Shown here: one piece after another, positions 3,108 to 30,249 of the stretch
Layout: each line of letters begins with the position of its first letter
Numbering within the stretch: the first letter of the stretch is position 1
Source of the DNA: a virus
Lineage: Duplodnaviria; Caudoviricetes
IMG/VR virus record: IMGVR_UViG_3300037424_000503
Location: 1-30,249 of that record
DNA length: 30,249 bases
Direction: 5' to 3' (one strand)
Position numbers and translations under genes: made by a program
Notes under the pieces: generated by a model
Databases searched by the model: none
Told to the model about the DNA's origin: nothing
The model's input: the letters and a program-made list of their open reading frames with translations, nothing else

Positions 3108-3215
3108 ATAATCTAATAGCTTTCTGGACGGGATATTATTTTTATTGGTATGTTTGGTATAATACTAATGTTTATAAATTCAATAATAGCTTTGGAGTTA
3201 AATAAACTTATATGA
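3104..3215 (+). pseudogene. possible frameshifted small membrane-protein gene
   Basis: The ATGA-coupled start at 3104 (MNNLIAFWTG) and the ATGA-coupled stop at 3213-3215 are in different frames. Removing 1 nt near 3134-3143 gives a hydrophobic 36 aa peptide. Confidence 0.35.
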
Positions 3216-3579: not shown

Positions 3580-3891
3580 ATGAAATTAAAATTAAAGAAG
3601 AATTCATCAATTAGAAAAAATGGACTTTATGATTTAGAAAAAATATTTGGGGACTGTGATGGTCATGGTTGTGGTTTTGGAGGAGAAGATATTTCATGGT
3701 ATCTTTCTAATTACAAAAAAAGCACCTACGATAGATTAGATATTTCTGAAGAAAATGGAAAAATTATTGTAAGCATTCAAAAAGTATATAATGATGATAT
3801 TACAGATCCAGAAGATTTAGATGTTAATGATATGCCAAAGAAATGGCAAAATAAATTTAATAAATTTGTTAAAGAACATTGTCTTAAATAA
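3580..3891 (+). CDS. hypothetical protein
   Basis: 103 aa with glycine-rich DGHGCGFGGED motif. Confidence 0.65.
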   Translation: MKLKLKKNSSIRKNGLYDLEKIFGDCDGHGCGFGGEDISWYLSNYKKSTYDRLDISEENGKIIVSIQKVYNDDITDPEDLDVNDMPKKWQNKFNKFVKEHCLK

Positions 3892-3900
3892 AGTGAAAAT

Positions 3901-3921
3901 GTATAAAATACAGGTATAAAA
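3901..3921 (+). promoter_or_regulatory. putative promoter (-10-like GTATAAAA twice)
   Basis: GTATAAAA at 3901-3908 and GGTATAAAA at 3913-3921, at the start of the only long intergenic gap; resembles GGTATAAT at 16681 and 25016. Confidence 0.4.
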
Positions 3922-3932
3922 CATAGTCTCTT

Positions 3933-4112
3933 AAAATTCGTTAGGTTGCGCAGGTTGAACGGTGGAACAAAAAGCTACAACGACACAAAAATGTCGGAAT
4001 AAGTCAATGGCGCAAATTTATGAATTTTCTGTGCCACTAGTTTGGCACACACTAGAACCAAAAGGGTTCTAGAACAAAACATAATTTGGTTTCGTAGTAA
4101 ATTTGGAAACCA
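3933..4112 (+). ncRNA. putative structured non-coding element (ncRNA or origin hairpins)
   Basis: 3933-3951 pairs with 4010-4028 (15 WC, 2 GU, 2 mismatches). Further hairpins at 3981-3996, 4030-4049 (7 bp), 4052-4072 (8 bp), 4087-4112 (7 bp). No credible ORF. Confidence 0.45.
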
Positions 4113-4210
4113 TTAAGAACCTAAGAAACCATTAAGGAAGGGAAACCTTAAGGGGGGTAGGGGGGTTATAGGAAGGGATAGATTAAGGAAGTTGAGGAAT
4201 TTAAGGAAAG
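4106..4210. repeat. purine/G-rich short direct-repeat tract
   Basis: GAAACCATTAAG at 4106-4117 and 4125-4136, GAAACCTTAAG at 4142-4152, TTAAGGAA at 4132, 4183 and 4201; G6-TA-G6 at 4152-4165. Confidence 0.7.
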
Positions 4211-4219
4211 AAAGTATAT

Positions 4220-4236
4220 GCATGACAGAGAATATT
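4220..4236 (+). repeat. direct repeat copy 1 (GCATGACAGAGAATATT)
   Basis: 16/17 identical to 4999-5015; the two copies flank the nuclease ORF. Confidence 0.75.
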
Positions 4237-4260
4237 AGTTTGTATAGTGTTGGTTAGACT

Positions 4261-4989
4261 ATGAAAAATAAATTAAGGTTTAGAGTAATAGGATACTCTA
4301 AAAGCAAAGATGATATTGTAGAATTAAAGAAATTTACTAGTAGAATTAAAGCAGAAAAGGGAATAGCCAAGTTTTTAAAAAATAAAAATCTTTCTGATCT
4401 AAAGATTCTTTCTGTTAAGGAAAAAATTCCAAAGATACAATTGGATAATATAATCTCATTTAATGACGATAAATTATTGAATGTACATTTTAAAATTAAA
4501 AATGATAAATACGAATTTTATTTCCGTGGCAGAAAATTTAAAAAAAGACAAACTGTAATAAGAGGTATAGAGTTTAAAGATATTAAAAATTTACAAATTG
4601 ATAACGATAAAAATAAAAGATTTCTTTTATTAAATAATCTATATTTAGAAGAATGGATATTGTCTAGCAGATTTTATTCTAGTAAAATAACTGATTCAGA
4701 AAAAATTATTATTGATATTTTGGATAAATTAAAAATAAAATATATGACACACCCTGTATTAGCACTAAATAAAACTAAATTTATAATTCCGGATTTTCTT
4801 TTAATGTCAAAAGAATTAGTTATATTAGAAATAGATGATTCATCTCATTTAGATAAAAAAGAAAAGGATAAAAATAGAGATGAAATGCTAAAAAATATAG
4901 GTTTTAAAGTTTTAAGAATAAAAAATAAAGACACAAGAGTTTATGGTGAAGAAAAAATGAAAAGTATATTAAATTCAAATACGTGCTGA
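4261..4989 (+). CDS. DUF559/Vsr-like (EDxHD-type) endonuclease with basic N-terminal region
   Basis: C-terminal TDSE...PDF...LEIDDSSH...DKNRDEML..IGFKVLRI.N pattern. Confidence 0.8.
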   Translation: MKNKLRFRVIGYSKSKDDIVELKKFTSRIKAEKGIAKFLKNKNLSDLKILSVKEKIPKIQLDNIISFNDDKLLNVHFKIKNDKYEFYFRGRKFKKRQTVIRGIEFKDIKNLQIDNDKNKRFLLLNNLYLEEWILSSRFYSSKITDSEKIIIDILDKLKIKYMTHPVLALNKTKFIIPDFLLMSKELVILEIDDSSHLDKKEKDKNRDEMLKNIGFKVLRIKNKDTRVYGEEKMKSILNSNTC

Positions 4990-4998
4990 TGCACGTTA

Positions 4999-5015
4999 GC
5001 ATGACAGAAAATATT
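4999..5015 (+). repeat. direct repeat copy 2 (GCATGACAGAAAATATT)
   Basis: See 4220-4236; preceded by the inverted repeat ACGTGC-TGAT-GCACGT at 4981-4996. Confidence 0.75.
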
Positions 5016-5135
5016 TTTTTGTTTGGATTAATTATGGCGAGTGATGAAACTTTTTATTTTTGGTGTTCTGTTATAGGTTTTATTTGTTGGGTGTTTTTAT
5101 TATTAATTTCTGATCGCGGTAAAGGTGTAAAATGA
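5001..5135 (+). CDS. small membrane protein (44 aa, absent from track)
   Basis: MTENIFLFGLIMASDETFYFWCSVIGFICWVFLLLISDRGKGVK*; stop overlaps ATG 5132. Confidence 0.55.
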   Translation: MTENIFLFGLIMASDETFYFWCSVIGFICWVFLLLISDRGKGVK

Positions 5136-5381: not shown

Positions 5382-5603
5382 ATGGAATGTTTTTTTTGTA
5401 AAGAAAAATTTAAAATTAATGATAAGATTTATAAAATTGTTCCGTGCTTCGTTTTATATGCGGAAACTTTAGAGTATAATCGTGTGAAAGAAGCTTTTGT
5501 ATGTCACGAAAATTGCTTATTAAAGAATAATAAGACAGAAAAAATTTGTAATGACGCCGTAGAGAGAAATAATATATTGGATTTATTGGTGAATAATGAA
5601 TAA
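5382..5603 (+). CDS. small zinc-binding protein
   Basis: CFFC...CHENC; ATG 5382 within track ORF 5376-5603; overlaps the start of the BrxL-like gene. Confidence 0.6.
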   Translation: MECFFCKEKFKINDKIYKIVPCFVLYAETLEYNRVKEAFVCHENCLLKNNKTEKICNDAVERNNILDLLVNNE

Positions 5604-6996
5604 TGTAAAAAATATATTTCCTGAAAATGGAGTAGTAATAAATAAATCTATTTCTAATAATTTTAGAAAGCTTCCAAATTTTGTATCAGATTATTTAGTT
5701 TCACAACTCGTTGATCCTACAAATCCTGAAATCGGAATTCAAAAAATAACTAAGATACTAGAAGAAAATTTTATAGATTCTGATAAAAAGGAATTAGTAA
5801 AAAGCAGGATAAAAGAACTAGGAAGATATTCTTTCTTGGGCAATATTAATTGTAGATTTGACCAGAATAAAAATGAATATTTTGCATCCGTAAATGTTCT
5901 AGAAGATAATAATATTAGGATAAGTCCTGATGTTTTAGAAAAATATGGTGATATACTCCTAACTACGGGATGTTATGGTAGCTTATTGGTAGCTTTTGAA
6001 CCATTTACTTTAACAAAAAAGAAGAATTATCCATTTATTATAATAGATTTCGTTCCTTTTCAGATAACAAATATAAACATAAATTCATATATAGAAAAAA
6101 GAAAAAACTTTTTAACTGATGAATGGATTGATATTATAATTAACAGTATTGGATTCAATCCAGAATATTTGACTAGAGAACAAAAATTATTGTATGTATG
6201 TAGGCTAACTCCTTTTGTAGAATCTAATCTTAATACTATAGAATTAGGGGGAACAGAAACTGCTAAGACACATATATACAGAAATCTTAGCCAATATGGT
6301 ATATTACTTTCTGGTTCTAATCCATCTATGGCAAGTCTCTTTTATAATAAACTAAGAAGAACAGTAGGAATTCTTTGCAAGAAAGACTGCGTTATATTCG
6401 ATGAGATATCTGGAACTAAATTTAATGATGAAGAACTAATAAATTCTCTAAAAGATTTTATGAATAGCGGAAAATTCTCAAGGGATAGAGTCGAATTAAC
6501 TTCTGGATGTTCTGTTGTATTTATAGGAAATATTGATACTGACACAAATAAACAAGAAGTTAAAAATTATTATCACCACCTATTTACACCACTACCAGTT
6601 AAGATAAGAAATGACAGGGCGTTTCTAGATAGGATTCACGGATTCTTACCGGGATGGAAACTACCAAGAATATCTGTGTCTAGCCTATCTTCAGATTATG
6701 GATTTATGGCAGATTATATAAGTGAAATATTTCACAGATTTCGGGACATAGATTATTCTGATATTATTAAATCGAAGATTAAATTTGATAATTCAAGTTT
6801 TAGAAATCAACAAGCCGTAACCAAACTTTGTTCCGCATTAATTAAAATAATCTATCCCGACAAAAATATAACGGATAGTGAATTAAATGAAATTCTCAAT
6901 ATTGCCATTGATCTAAGACAAAGAGTTATTGATCAATTGGGAATAATAGCACCAAGCGAATTCAAAGGAATTAAAATACAATGTTCAATACTATAG
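5596..6996 (+). CDS. brxL: BrxL-like AAA+/MCM-related ATPase lacking the Lon protease domain (TIGR02688-like)
   Basis: BrxL signatures: LPNFVSDYL, FLTDEWIDIIINSIGFNP, RLTPFVESNLNTIELG, SLFYN...VG, VIFDEI, LKDFMNSGKFSR, VFIGNI, AFLDRIHGFLPGWKLP, YGFMADYISEIFH, LRQRVIDQL. 466 aa; ends before any Lon domain. Confidence 0.85.
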   Translation: MNNVKNIFPENGVVINKSISNNFRKLPNFVSDYLVSQLVDPTNPEIGIQKITKILEENFIDSDKKELVKSRIKELGRYSFLGNINCRFDQNKNEYFASVNVLEDNNIRISPDVLEKYGDILLTTGCYGSLLVAFEPFTLTKKKNYPFIIIDFVPFQITNININSYIEKRKNFLTDEWIDIIINSIGFNPEYLTREQKLLYVCRLTPFVESNLNTIELGGTETAKTHIYRNLSQYGILLSGSNPSMASLFYNKLRRTVGILCKKDCVIFDEISGTKFNDEELINSLKDFMNSGKFSRDRVELTSGCSVVFIGNIDTDTNKQEVKNYYHHLFTPLPVKIRNDRAFLDRIHGFLPGWKLPRISVSSLSSDYGFMADYISEIFHRFRDIDYSDIIKSKIKFDNSSFRNQQAVTKLCSALIKIIYPDKNITDSELNEILNIAIDLRQRVIDQLGIIAPSEFKGIKIQCSIL

Positions 6997-7364
6997 AAGA
7001 TATTTGGAGAGATATTAAAGAATTTGAATTTAAGAATAGAATAAAACCTAATGTTATTTTTATTTCAAGAAAAAATAAAGCTCATTTTTTTCAACTAATT
7101 AATAGTGATTATTACTATTATTGCAACAGTTCTAATCCTCAAGACTTTAATAGATTTACACTATTTGGATTGTTGGTAAGGTTTACAGAATCATTAGATG
7201 AAGTAGATTATATAGCAGAATTTGATAAATCATCTTTTCAAAATTTTTATTTAGAATATTTTAATTGTCCACCACCAGAATATATTGCAAAAATGGTTCC
7301 TGAAAAACCCCGTTTATTACCAGAGAAAACAAAACAAAAGAAGAAAAGGAGAATTATTCTATGA
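6981..7364 (+). CDS. hypothetical protein
   Basis: 127 aa, overlaps both neighbours, basic C-terminus. Confidence 0.6.
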   Translation: MFNTIEDIWRDIKEFEFKNRIKPNVIFISRKNKAHFFQLINSDYYYYCNSSNPQDFNRFTLFGLLVRFTESLDEVDYIAEFDKSSFQNFYLEYFNCPPPEYIAKMVPEKPRLLPEKTKQKKKRRIIL

Positions 7365-7489
7365 GTAACAAAACATCTAATATAATTTGTATTGTGTTGA
7401 CATTTATATTTGTTGGTTGTATTTCGAGTATTTTATCTGCGACACCGGGTTGTCGAAGTATTATCAATGATATATCTGGATGGAGATAA
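7361..7489 (+). CDS. small membrane/secreted peptide (42 aa, absent from track)
   Basis: MSNKTSNIICIVLTFIFVGCISSILSATPGCRSIINDISGWR*; ATGA-coupled start. Confidence 0.5.
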   Translation: MSNKTSNIICIVLTFIFVGCISSILSATPGCRSIINDISGWR

Positions 7490-7491
7490 AA

Positions 7492-7671
7492 ATGATAGAA
7501 GTAAAAGATAATAAAATATCTGGAACAACAGATGAATTGTTAAAACTTAGAGATCAAATAAATTTTTTATTAAGGGAATCCAAAAAAGAAATTGAATGGC
7601 CATATCTTGGACATAATAATATTATTGAGATAAAAATAATAAACTCTGATTTACAAAGGAATTATACGTGA
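7492..7671 (+). CDS. hypothetical protein
   Basis: Track ORF 7480-7671; ATG 7492; GTGA overlap with the methyltransferase. Confidence 0.55.
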   Translation: MIEVKDNKISGTTDELLKLRDQINFLLRESKKEIEWPYLGHNNIIEIKIINSDLQRNYT

Positions 7672-8796: not shown

Positions 8797-8949
8797 ATGA
8801 AAAAAGTTAAATTGATATTAGAATATGAAATAGGCGAATATGATGAAGATGAAAGAATTTCTTCAGATCTAAAAGTTTGGGAAGAAGTATTACAACAATC
8901 TGATGTTCTTATCTGTGATATGAAAATATTGGAAGTGAGAATTGAATAA
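8797..8949 (+). CDS. small acidic protein (50 aa, absent from track)
   Basis: MKKVKLILEYEIGEYDEDERISSDLKVWEEVLQQSDVLICDMKILEVRIE*; abuts the previous stop, TAATG overlap with the next gene. Confidence 0.6.
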   Translation: MKKVKLILEYEIGEYDEDERISSDLKVWEEVLQQSDVLICDMKILEVRIE

Positions 8950-9308
8950 TGTTAAAGTTTGGAACATCTCCGTTTCTTGAATGTAGTTCTAAGGGGGATA
9001 GAAGATTTTCTGCTTTTTATGCTAGACTAAACGAATATGATGGTAGAAGCATAGAGGAGATTTATCAGGCGTCTAAAATGTTTGAAGATGGCAGTACGGG
9101 TTTTGGGTGGAGAGAGGCTAAGGGCCGTGAATGTGTTAATAAAGATCACGTTAAATGGTTATATTCTAAATTATGGGATCTTTATTTTGAAGAAAATCCT
9201 AATCTTTTAAAGATTATAAAACAATATGGTGGTTTTACAGACATTTTCGGGCAGAGTAACCACTGCTGTCAAGCTGAAGAGATTTGGAGAATTAGAAATG
9301 AAAGCTAA
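8949..9308 (+). CDS. NADAR-like protein (resembles DarT1-associated NADAR antitoxin family)
   Basis: FLECSSKG...FSAFYA...SIEEIYQASKMFEDG...W..Y...NP.L......GFTDIF.....CQA pattern. Confidence 0.6.
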   Translation: MLKFGTSPFLECSSKGDRRFSAFYARLNEYDGRSIEEIYQASKMFEDGSTGFGWREAKGRECVNKDHVKWLYSKLWDLYFEENPNLLKIIKQYGGFTDIFGQSNHCCQAEEIWRIRNES

Positions 9309-11577: not shown

Positions 11578-11870
11578 CAATGCACGAAAATACAAAGATA
11601 GCTATTGTGGTAATATTGATTTTTTCATTTATTTTTACTATTGTTGGATATTTAGGATATCATCTAAGATATGAACAAATGCATCAATGCCAATATTATT
11701 ATCCCTATCAAATTATATCAGGTAGTATAGTAACTGGTGGTAATATATTTAGCTCATATCCAATATACTCAATATGTGTTAAAGGGAAAAGAAAAAATCT
11801 GGATGAAGAATGCACTCTTTCTATAAGAGTAACCGAACAAAAATACAATGAATGGATAGAGGGAAATTAA
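11574..11870 (+). CDS. membrane-anchored hypothetical protein
   Basis: N-terminal TM segment IAIVVILIFSFIFTIVGYLGY. Confidence 0.65.
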   Translation: MTMHENTKIAIVVILIFSFIFTIVGYLGYHLRYEQMHQCQYYYPYQIISGSIVTGGNIFSSYPIYSICVKGKRKNLDEECTLSIRVTEQKYNEWIEGN

Positions 11871-11872
11871 GA

Positions 11873-12823
11873 ATGAGCGTTCATGAATGTCCAGTAATCA
11901 AAATTAAATTAGAGCCGCATCCTGATGCCAATTCATTGAGTCTTGTTAGATATGAAAATTATGTACTAGTAGTGAAAACTTCTCAATGGAAAGATGGTGA
12001 TCTTGCGGTTCATATTCCTGAAGATTACGTTTGCCCCGATACAGAGCAATTTGCATTTCTTGGAACCAGCAAAAGAATAAAACCAAGAAAATTTAGAGGT
12101 ATTTATTCTGATGGAATTTTAATTAAAGCGCCAGACGGGTTAAGTGTGGGGCAAAATGCTATGGAAGCACTTGGGATTAAAAGATATGATCCAGAAATTG
12201 AAATATCATTCAATGACGATAATGAGTCTGGACCTAGCGGCAACTGGCCTAAGTATGATGTAGAAGGTTATAAGAAATATGGGGATTGGTTTAATCCGAA
12301 TGAATTAGTCGTAGCCACAGAAAAGATTCATGGCGCTTCTGCTAGGTTCTTATTCCAAGACAATAGGACTTGGTGTGGATCAAGAACGAATTGGAAAAAA
12401 CAATCGGACAAAGACCCTTGGTGGAAAGCTTTGCATCAGAATCCTTGGATAGAATCTTGGTGTCGGGCGAATCCGGGGTATGCACTGTACGGTGAGATAT
12501 TTGGACGAGTACAAAATCTAAAATATGGTTGTGAACCGAATCAAATAAGGTTTGCTATATTCGATATAAGACACGATAGGATTTGGATAAATCATGATGA
12601 AGCAAGAGATATGGGTCGCGGACTATTTTGGGTTCCAGAAATATATAGGGGTCCATTAGATCTTAATAGAATTTCCGAACTAATAGAATGCGATAGCGTA
12701 GTAGGTGGTAAGGATCATGTCATGGAAGGTTGCGTTATAAAGCCATTAATAGAAAGAGAATCATATAGTGGCGATAGAATTCAACTTAAACTTATAAGTA
12801 GGAGATATTTTAGTGAGAAGTAA
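11873..12823 (+). CDS. RNA ligase, DRB0094/Rnl2-like family with N-terminal OB domain
   Basis: N-terminal HPDANSL...GDLAVHIPED...RGIYSDG; ligase motifs TEKIHGAS, YGEIFG, FDI, EGCV, KLIS..Y. ATG 11873 within track ORF 11852. Confidence 0.88.
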   Translation: MSVHECPVIKIKLEPHPDANSLSLVRYENYVLVVKTSQWKDGDLAVHIPEDYVCPDTEQFAFLGTSKRIKPRKFRGIYSDGILIKAPDGLSVGQNAMEALGIKRYDPEIEISFNDDNESGPSGNWPKYDVEGYKKYGDWFNPNELVVATEKIHGASARFLFQDNRTWCGSRTNWKKQSDKDPWWKALHQNPWIESWCRANPGYALYGEIFGRVQNLKYGCEPNQIRFAIFDIRHDRIWINHDEARDMGRGLFWVPEIYRGPLDLNRISELIECDSVVGGKDHVMEGCVIKPLIERESYSGDRIQLKLISRRYFSEK

Positions 12824-14500: not shown

Positions 14501-14757
14501 TGGATTCTGTATTTTATGAATGCGGTTGTTATAGTCCTGAGCACACCCTGAAATTCGTCTATGACGAAATAGATAGAGAACTATATACAGAAATATACCT
14601 GTGTCAGTATAAAAGGTTTTACCAAAGAGTTTGGTGTGCTATAAAATATATATTTGGTTACAAATGTAAGTATGGCGATTTCGATTGTTTTACTTTTAAG
14701 ACAGAAGATTTATCAAAATTTAGGGATATGATAAGTGAATTATGCAAAGAAGAATAA
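14500..14757 (+). CDS. conserved-looking phage hypothetical protein
   Basis: ECGCYSPEH...AIKYIFGYKCKYG; TAATG-coupled to thyX. Confidence 0.7.
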   Translation: MDSVFYECGCYSPEHTLKFVYDEIDRELYTEIYLCQYKRFYQRVWCAIKYIFGYKCKYGDFDCFTFKTEDLSKFRDMISELCKEE

Positions 14758-15227
14758 CTAGCTCGTATTACAATTACTATTATAAAAATAAAGTTAGACT
14801 TATTAATAAGATCATATCAAAATTTCGTTACAAAAATCAAGAAGAATTAATGTCTATAGGTAAGATTGAATTATTGTATTCTATGATCCATTTTGATAAA
14901 ACATTAGCCTCATTTAATACATATCTTTTTCAAAGAATTTATGGAAATATTCTTAGATTTATAAGAGATGAAAAAGAATGGTGTAAAAATATAGATATGG
15001 ATTTGAATACTATCAAAAATAAATCACATGATATTTCTAATACGATTTTAATAAAAGAAATTTTATCGTCGCTGTCAGAAAGAGAAAGAAAAATTCTAGA
15101 ATTATATTATCTTGAAAATAATACATTGAGGGAAATATCAGATAAATTAGATTTATCAACAAACTGTATATTCATTAATAAAATTAAAGCTTTAAAAAGA
15201 ATAAAGGAGACGTTCGATTGTCTTTAA
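14742..15227 (+). CDS. sigma-70-family RNA polymerase sigma factor (regions 2 and 4 only)
   Basis: Region 2-like EELMSIG..ELL.SM..FD...SFNTY...RI.G.I; region 4 LSERERKILELYY....TLREIS..L.LS.......KALKRIK. Confidence 0.8.
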   Translation: MQRRITSSYYNYYYKNKVRLINKIISKFRYKNQEELMSIGKIELLYSMIHFDKTLASFNTYLFQRIYGNILRFIRDEKEWCKNIDMDLNTIKNKSHDISNTILIKEILSSLSERERKILELYYLENNTLREISDKLDLSTNCIFINKIKALKRIKETFDCL

Positions 15228-29079: not shown

Positions 29080-30249
29080 AAGCCCATTAAGTGATGCTGG
29101 ACTAGAAAGATCTGTCTTATCTGGTATATTGAATAATGGATCTAATCTTTTTATAGACATAGAAGATATATTGGAGACTAAGGATTTTCATTATACCATA
29201 AATCAAAAAATATTTTCTATAATTAAGCATTTGGTTCATGAAAAAGATATTGAAAAATTTGACGTTCCCACTATTTTAGCCGGAGCTAAATTTATTGATT
29301 GCGATAAGTTTAGCACAGACGATAAGGCGTCTGAATATTTGGAAGCCTTATTTGATGGTTCTCCGACAGAGGAAAATACTAAATCTATAGCTATTTGTAT
29401 ATATAAATTGTCTTTAGCAAGACAAGCCAACAAATGTATATCAGAAATATCTAATGATTTAAACAATATTAATGGAAGCGAAAAAATAGATGACATAATT
29501 AAAAAAATAGAAGAACCAATATTTTTGTTTACAAGTAAATTGGGTCAAAATAATAACGATTTAGTTGACATACATGAAAATTTAGTTGAAAGATTGCAAC
29601 AAGTATCAAAAGAACCAAAAGATATTGTTGGTTTACCAACCGGATTTCCTAATTGGGATAACTGTATTGGTGGTGGATTAAGAAGAGGAACAGTTAATGT
29701 TATTGGGGCGAGAGCAAAAGTTGGCAAAAGCCATTTATGTTTAAACGTCGCAAAAAATATAGGCGAATTGAATATTCCAGTTCTTTATTTGGATACAGAA
29801 ATGAATCAGGCAGAACAACAAGATAGACTTACTTCTCTTGTTTCTGGTGTTGATTTTAATCTTATAGAAACTGGAAAATTTTCTATTATGGAAGAAGAAA
29901 ATAAAGCGGTTTGGGGATGTGTGGAAAATGTTAAAAAAATGCCAATAATTCACACTAATATAGCGGGATTTTCAATAGAACAAGTATTATCATTGACTAG
30001 AAAATGGTTATTAAAAAATGTTGGTTTAGATGATGGCGGATTAGCGAAACCATGTCTCGTAATTTATGATTATCTTAAATTAATGAATTCGGATGATCTT
30101 AAAGGAAATATGCAAGAAACACAACTATTGGGTTTTTTAATAACGGCGTTGCATAATTTTGCGGTTAAATATGGAATTCCAATTTTGGCAACCGTTCAAT
30201 TGAATAGAGATGGAGTAGAAAAAGAAGGACCTGAAGTAATATCTGGATC
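29069..30249 (+). CDS. dnaB: DnaB-like replicative helicase (3'-truncated, absent from track)
   Basis: Hand translation from ATG 29069: MQNKSPLSDAGLERSVLSGIL...GLPTGFPNWD..IGGGLRRG...GARAKVGKS (Walker A)...YLDTEM...IYDYLKL...VQLNRDG; runs off the window end. Confidence 0.92.
   Translation, partial: MQNKSPLSDAGLERSVLSGILNNGSNLFIDIEDILETKDFHYTINQKIFSIIKHLVHEKDIEKFDVPTILAGAKFIDCDKFSTDDKASEYLEALFDGSPTEENTKSIAICIYKLSLARQANKCISEISNDLNNINGSEKIDDIIKKIEEPIFLFTSKLGQNNNDLVDIHENLVERLQQVSKEPKDIVGLPTGFPNWDNCIGGGLRRGTVNVIGARAKVGKSHLCLNVAKNIGELNIPVLYLDTEMNQAEQQDRLTSLVSGVDFNLIETGKFSIMEEENKAVWGCVENVKKMPIIHTNIAGFSIEQVLSLTRKWLLKNVGLDDGGLAKPCLVIYDYLKLMNSDDLKGNMQETQLLGFLITALHNFAVKYGIPILATVQLNRDGVEKEGPEVISG

Follow-up and report, generated by a model that had tools for sequence, protein, structure and literature searches.

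We find that positions 3931-4030 of the window, a 30-kb piece (30,249 nucleotides) of an A+T-rich phage genome estimated to be 18% complete, hold a real, conserved and uncatalogued module of a likely + strand RNA, as judged from comparison with related phages. The module is very probably the retained 5' module of an element of 550-580 nt, the core of which has been swapped in this phage. On this reading, a large phage RNA absent from the catalogues now has a defined 5' boundary and one separable domain, and the locus shows domain swapping in nature: a nuclease cassette with an origin-like G tract has taken the place of the core, and the two ends are retained. The module lies in the gap at 3891-4261, which is indeed the only long gene-free gap, being the sole one of more than 200 nt between open reading frames (ORFs) of at least 55 aa, and which precedes a 242-aa DUF559 gene. 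Other genes in the window code for two RNA ligases, a BrxL-like ATPase, a thymidylate synthase, a sigma factor (14742-15227), a ribonucleotide reductase, an RNase H, a RecA/UvsX protein and HNH proteins.

The conserved 5' module

Two syntenic phage records, L001 and L002, were retrieved with the BrxL protein and showed best-segment identities of 91% and 73%, respectively. A third relative with 64% identity, L321, was retrieved by a BrxL alignment search. The comparison of the 5' module rests on three sequences, those of the window, L001 and L002. The module is composed of an A/U-rich outer stem, a near-invariant core duplex and a three-way junction. The core duplex (TTGCGC-AG-GTTGA / TCAAT-G-GCGCAA) keeps 11 of its 11 pairs in all three sequences, with 20 of the 22 bases invariant, and 21 of the 22 bases are identical between window and L002, compared to 36% identity at the four-fold sites of BrxL. 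On the window branch, we counted 0 changes in 25 core columns versus 10 in 58 four-fold sites. The changes fit a + strand RNA only: one G-U pair is invariant, and changes from G-C to G-U and from A-U to G-U keep the pairing. The module is predicted to fold on its own, and as DNA its fold is poor (z -1.6 and -1.4). Thus, the original prediction of a conserved + strand structure of the single-stranded type, belonging to no catalogued family, appears to hold for 3931-4030.

Two small hairpins are enclosed by the core. Inner hairpin 1 (3962-3978, + strand, pair probability 0.9) has a AACAAAAAG loop that is identical to that of L001 in 9 of 9 bases, with three of four pairs kept, one compensatory, and it is weak in L002. 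Inner hairpin 2 (3981-3996, + strand, pair probability 0.98) has a CAAAAA loop and three of five pairs kept in L001, two compensatory, and at its place L002 has a different strong hairpin. Between window and L001, 14 of 15 bases are identical in the inner loops versus 8 of 18 in the inner stems (Fisher p 0.004), the stems showing three compensatory and three broken pairs, and both hairpins are better paired in the window copy than in L001. Covariation between the syntenic gaps, suggested earlier as a check, was found in part. On a model of the whole module, 83.9% of 87 cells were paired and 6 pairs had changed on both sides, which exceeds nearly all shuffles (1-3/500) and all slid controls, for a model that is the window's own fold applied to three related sequences. 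RNAalifold on the three sequences retained 20 outer and core pairs only, with 1 double change. The covariation is therefore weak, since there are only three sequences.

The region that had originally been singled out, 3901-4112, is longer than the module, and its described helices were all recovered in both the minimum free energy and the centroid folds. These comprise the long stem 3933-3951/4010-4028, with 15 Watson-Crick pairs, 2 G-U pairs and 2 mismatches, its inner extension 3954-3958/4004-4008, and the downstream hairpins 4030-4049, 4052-4072 and 4087-4112. The folding energy was better than that of dinucleotide shuffles (-54.3 versus -37.3 +/- 4.0 kcal/mol, z -4.31, 0 of 200 as good), as had been expected of a structured RNA, and the 150-nt windows covering the gap ranked 1st and 4th by z among 201 non-overlapping windows of the contig. 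The reverse strand of 3901-4112 folds almost equally well (z -3.95), and the long-stem domain alone reaches z -2.8 on the + strand and -2.05 on the - strand. Most of the fold signal is supplied by the three downstream hairpins, which are strand-symmetric, with z -5.9 as RNA on the + strand and, as DNA, -5.9 and -5.8 on the two strands. The region does not form one unit, as had been assumed: 3931-4030 is common to the relatives, and the three hairpins are found only in the window, without a significant match in the L001 and L002 elements. The repeated CAAAA motif, part of the original description, does occur at 3968, 3986, 4059 and 4075, but only two of the four copies lie wholly in loops, the copy at 4059 starting within a stem and that at 4075 forming a linker. 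The CAAAA count is no higher than in shuffles, since four copies in 212 nt were matched by 8% of 2000 shuffles and by 46 of 1502 contig windows. Nor are these loops conserved as far as L002, in which 5 of 9 and 3 of 6 loop bases remain.

No fourth sequence of the element was found in any of the wider searches of viral, metagenome and genome sets. One exact and gapped pattern scan for further homologues of the module gave 0 loci, and other pattern scans gave 120 loci (from 43 of the 64 parts into which the viral collection is divided), 82 loci, 88 metagenome loci and 5 genome loci. A search of the pattern-scan loci with nhmmer gave nothing but copies of L001 and L002, and 213 pattern loci listed later contained 185 distinct matches, most of them inside long ORFs. 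One candidate locus, L278, was set aside after inspection. In 45 chosen sources, a covariance model recovered nothing beyond the three sequences it had been trained on, the next best match having an E value of 0.14. Among annotated phages and plasmids there was no useful match to the element, and our literature searches found no published description of it. The core motif is absent from six supplementary files of Fremin et al. 2023 (PMC10690425), a study with three further files that may list candidate RNAs.

Replacement of the element core

L001 and L002 lack the DUF559 gene, and at its place they carry a conserved non-coding element of 548 and 578 nt, respectively, which is bounded by the 5' module and a 3' hairpin. 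The cores of the two elements are identical in 311 of 409 positions, compared to 40% at the four-fold sites of BrxL. A profile of the element, searched with nhmmer, has just two matches in the window, 3893-4030 and 4968-5008 (E 6e-9 for the 3' match), thus the window keeps both ends, with 944 other bases between them. The conserved 3' block (4975-5005) contains the hairpin ACGTGC/GCACGT (4981-4996) and is identical in 28 of 32 columns in all three sequences. In L001 and L002, the 5' strand of the module is predicted to pair with the 3' end of the element, and a 9-bp long-range helix within the element carries one compensatory change, so that the relatives' element is probably one RNA molecule. 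The window is devoid of the 3' pairing partner of the module, as there is no GCGC in 4031-5100. In the more distant L321 the whole element is missing at this place.

Inside the element, an ORF starting with MHDKE and preceded by a Shine-Dalgarno-like site opens in both L001 (8917-9183, 88 aa) and L002 (8615-8926, 103 aa). We treated the conservation of the element as nucleotide-level and not coding, because this ORF has no PHROG match and the conserved blocks are read in different frames. The first codons of the ORF persist in the window at 4218, where the ATGCATGACA block (4218-4238, + strand) opens a 6-codon ORF. This block is a probable, if weak, candidate for a remnant of the relatives' element; when 4142-4233 was aligned to the start of the relatives' core, the alignment was equalled by 9 and 6 of 200 shuffles. 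A direct repeat flanking the nuclease gene (4220 and 4999) was dropped from consideration, given that the relatives' element contains a counterpart of the 4218 block.

The nuclease gene (4261-4989, + strand, 242 aa, 21% G+C, Vsr-like, Pfam DUF559 E 5e-10) sits between the two retained ends, and its stop codon falls in the loop region of the 4981-4996 hairpin. Its protein contains the motif EIDDSSH of the DUF559 type, and PDF..E.D...H aligns with 3hrl_A (E 0.31). A single close relative (P0002) was present among 183 matches, no locus with a relative was found in viral contigs, and a DUF559 homologue was present in 0 of 3 partial records of the related phages. The gene is optional and intergenic among the relatives and codes for a nuclease domain with catalytic residues, which makes it likely, from its predicted protein and position, that it is a free-standing homing endonuclease. 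A fixed partnership between the RNA and this nuclease, one of the suggestions made originally, is unlikely, as both relatives carry the module without a DUF559 homologue.

The replacement begins with the three perfect hairpins (4030-4112). These are followed on the + strand by short direct repeats (4106-4151), with GAAACCATTAAG present twice along with two variants, which look iteron-like and may act as such, and by a G6-TA-G6 tract (4149-4168) within a purine-rich run (4113-4216, 75% purine). The tract is the only one of its kind in the window, the pattern does not occur in G001, and the tract is missing at this place in both relatives (G001 and G002). The highest G-minus-C 100-nt windows of the contig are at the G tract, and the GC skew shows no switch at the locus. 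The 20-mer of the tract recurs in 18 other viral loci (L003-L020), from unrelated phages. Its complement lies inside ORFs of 219-335 aa in 12 of the 18 loci, and 8 of these 12 ORFs were tested, four near-copies being left out; 8 of 8 matched initiator, O-like, DnaD-like or primosomal families. The remaining 6 of 18 loci are outside long ORFs, five of them, by eye, near small-terminase-like ORFs. In the initiator genes the C run is on the A-rich coding strand, a purine context opposite to that of the window. The 20-mer is also the complement of the teleost mitochondrial CSB-2 as given in Table 4 of PMC3739747. For the human CSB II, a hybrid G-quadruplex stabilizes the primer R-loop, according to PMC3488243.

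A possible origin-priming transcript and its alternatives

Upstream of the module, a promoter-like TTGTCT-17 nt-TATAAA (3879-3908, + strand), read by eye, is identical in L001; its TATAAAA part (3902-3908) is invariant in all three sequences and its -35 part is changed in L002. The motif GGTATAAA (3913-3920, + strand), which had been proposed as the promoter, is present as described, but it is not kept in L001, and the invariant TATAAAA sits upstream of it. TTGTCT-17-TATAAA thus appears the likelier promoter, in which case the 5' end of the transcript would be near 3914. GTATAAA occurs in 18 copies on the + strand, 2 of them between genes, which is no enrichment (p 0.32). A sigma-70 scan reported no + strand site, TTGTCT-17-TATAAA included, and there was no terminator-like site in 3700-4400. 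An extended -10 match, TGGTATAAT, lies at 3155-3165, ahead of the two genes that precede the gap, and could feed read-through transcripts into the element.

As the leading candidate for a function, which we put forward tentatively, the module and the replaced core would form the head of a + strand transcript that primes DNA replication via an R-loop at the G tract. Transcription would start near 3914 from TTGTCT-17-TATAAA, the folded module and the hairpins would keep the 5' part of the RNA off the template, and the G run would stall the polymerase and hold the RNA-DNA hybrid, as at the mitochondrial CSB II or ColE1. The RNase H, helicase, primase and polymerase of the phage itself could then use the RNA 3' end. 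A protein may bind to the invariant core and to the A-rich loops, and the nuclease would be a selfish passenger that spread this allele. An origin primer RNA had been among the original suggestions, and this idea gains indirect support from the G tract at 4149-4168, beyond the coordinates considered at that time. As in R-loop origins, a G-rich tract is found on the non-template strand downstream of a consensus-like promoter match and a folded leader; the tract is not conserved at the locus in the relatives. In favor of priming are also the RNase H and RecA/UvsX genes in the window, and a helicase, primase, two-piece polymerase and SSB in G001, as found in a scan of 67 of its 90 proteins of at least 140 aa. 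Of note, the DNA polymerase of G001 (phrog_405) is encoded by two ORFs (78878-81196 and 94890-96647) that are 14 kb apart, possibly a split gene. Two initiator families had no match in four of four partial records of the group, while a control record did match, and there was no initiator ORF at the locus on either strand; the records of the phage group are 4-77% complete, and an initiator gene may be out of view.

Against priming stand the lack of the whole element in L321, the skew without a switch, the reversed purine context and the incompleteness of the genomes. Since the relatives have no G tract, priming cannot be a shared function unless the core of the relatives does so otherwise. Furthermore, the replacement may be recent, and a conserved module is therefore compatible with a dead one. 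A broader and highly doubtful version would be that replication in this phage group begins with no initiator protein, at an exchangeable RNA origin made up of the invariant module and either an ornate core of 420-460 nt or a core of hairpins, repeats and G-quadruplex, and that the second origin type is propagated by the homing-type nuclease, which cleaves the first. If priming is true, it would represent a replication start for large phages that have their own replisome and no recognizable initiator. If it is false, the locus would exemplify how a selfish nuclease can oust a gene for a non-coding RNA.

It is also conceivable, although unlikely, that the module and the incoming hairpins are the 5' leader of the DUF559 mRNA, closing the start codon on long transcripts, and that a gene-proximal promoter, such as the promoter-like ATGACA-15-TATAGT (4222-4248, by eye), gives a short translatable mRNA. 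When 3914-4275 was folded, 3922-3929 paired with 4256-4263 over the ATG with a probability of 0.7-0.99. An 8-bp perfect helix over the ATG arose in 3.1% of 2000 shuffles, and 11 of 276 genes in these phages have one; T4 homing endonucleases provide a precedent, as set out in sections of PMC2988022. However, the ATG is also predicted to be paired when the 5' strand is removed (starts at 3926-4250), so the effect is unspecific, L001 conserves the 5' strand 3922-3929 despite lacking the nuclease, and the repeats and G tract are left unexplained. We also consider it improbable that the module is a relic, in which case a homing-type nuclease cassette would recently have destroyed a large RNA gene, leaving two functionless recombination flanks. 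That the core is gone, with nhmmer matches confined to 3893-4030 and 4968-5008, that L321 lacks the element, that the nuclease gene has a low G+C content and ends inside the conserved hairpin, and that the module has its 3' pairing partner in L001 and L002 and not in the window would all fit such a course of events. Yet the inner hairpins of the window are better paired than those of L001, the 25 core columns contain 0 changes, and a bare nuclease gene would have no use for the three perfect hairpins or for so rare a G tract.

Two other explanations are less likely than priming, leader or relic. The sponge of the original prediction, an independent small RNA (about 120-200 nt) whose A-rich loops would sequester an RNA-binding protein of host or phage, would agree with the higher identity of loops (14/15) than stems (8/18) between window and L001 and with a module that folds by itself, but we regard it as distinctly unlikely given the lack of a terminator-like site in 3700-4400, the different loops of L002, the CAAAA count that is not above that of shuffles, and loops without GGA for CsrA-type binding. 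Finally, the gap could act as DNA only, with palindromes bound by proteins, or single-strand hairpins that belong to an origin or a site of recombination, and no RNA that matters. The three downstream hairpins, perfectly Watson-Crick paired and equal as DNA on both strands, and the repeats and G tract, which are DNA-type signals, would suit this, whereas the 5' module is poor as DNA and depends on + strand G-U pairs, making a DNA-only role very improbable.

Comparison with known RNA families and mobile nucleases

In agreement with the original assessment that the RNA is neither a tRNA nor a tmRNA, ARAGORN found 0 genes in the window. The Rfam 15 covariance models gave 0 hits at the gathering threshold in the window, L001 and L002, and E-value searches of the same three sequences gave only eukaryotic chance matches with E 0.95 or worse. 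The families covered included 6S, SRP, Y RNA, riboswitches, ROOL and GOLLD (RF03087 and RF02032, respectively), OLE, HEARO and group I and II introns. A group I intron was rejected, as there was neither an Rfam hit nor an interrupted gene. Retron msr-msd RNAs have a terminal inverted repeat around msr hairpins and a long msd hairpin; the stem found here encloses only 58 nt with two short hairpins, RVT_1 was absent from four of four partial records, while controls matched, and a retron was rejected as well. RNAs that sponge CsrA/RsmA carry repeated GGA in hairpin loops, and this candidate was likewise discarded, none of the three GGA (3964, 3996 and 4105) being centered in a loop.

Like ROOL and GOLLD, as far as these are described in parts of PMC12286853, the element is long, gene-free, conserved, multi-stemmed and apparently dispensable, it belongs to a tRNA-carrying phage group, and its full form in L001 and L002 is of ROOL size. 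Unlike them, it has no Rfam match, in G001 about 33 kb separate it from the closest tRNA, and the window keeps only the 100-nt module and the 3' hairpin.

Replication from the origins of T4 and from ColE1 RNA II is primed by transcription. The locus resembles these origins and CSB II in having a promoter-like site, a folded 5' region, two G runs on the transcribed-like strand and an RNase H gene nearby, and differs from ColE1 in that an equivalent of the antisense RNA I was not seen. R-loop priming has been established for ColE1 and T4, as outlined in sections of PMC5333043. The tract is the exact complement of the teleost CSB-2, and no homology was apparent beyond the tract, which we take as convergence. 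The same 20-mer with adjoining short repeats also occurs in origin regions inside phage initiator genes (O-like and DnaD-like; PHROGs 186, 678, 2514 and others), unlike which the tract of the window is intergenic and has the opposite purine context.

The nuclease gene resembles T4 seg and mob genes in its optional intergenic position and the possible sequestration of its start codon, as these genes are portrayed in parts of PMC2988022. With the Vsr-like EDxHD family (I-Bth0305I, in the portions of PMC3239194 that deal with it) it shares a Vsr-like C-terminal domain and a variable N-terminus. Unlike that family, it has the motif EIDDSSH, and instead of lying inside an intron it has taken the place of a non-coding element's core.

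Several neighboring features deserve mention. The BrxL-like ATPase (5596-6996) is a stand-alone protein with BrxL_N and ATPase domains and no Lon domain, kept in all three relatives; it is a homologue of a BREX component in a lytic-type phage, with a best match of 32% among annotated phages. The RNA ligases are encoded at 109-1605 and 11852-12823, with an L001 counterpart at 5644-7566. In the relatives, the first of them has 630-640 aa and fuses a phosphoesterase to Rnl1; the start of the window truncates it, and L321 has a different nuclease-like ORF ahead of a shorter ligase ORF. A gene similar to the DarT1-associated NADAR antitoxin (8949-9308, Pfam E 3e-8), possibly for counter-defence, is also present in L002. 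Elsewhere in the window, folds with z -2.9 to -3.2 were found in the 150-nt windows 1-150, 29251-29400 and 29701-29850, the last two being located where the genes switch to the minus strand.
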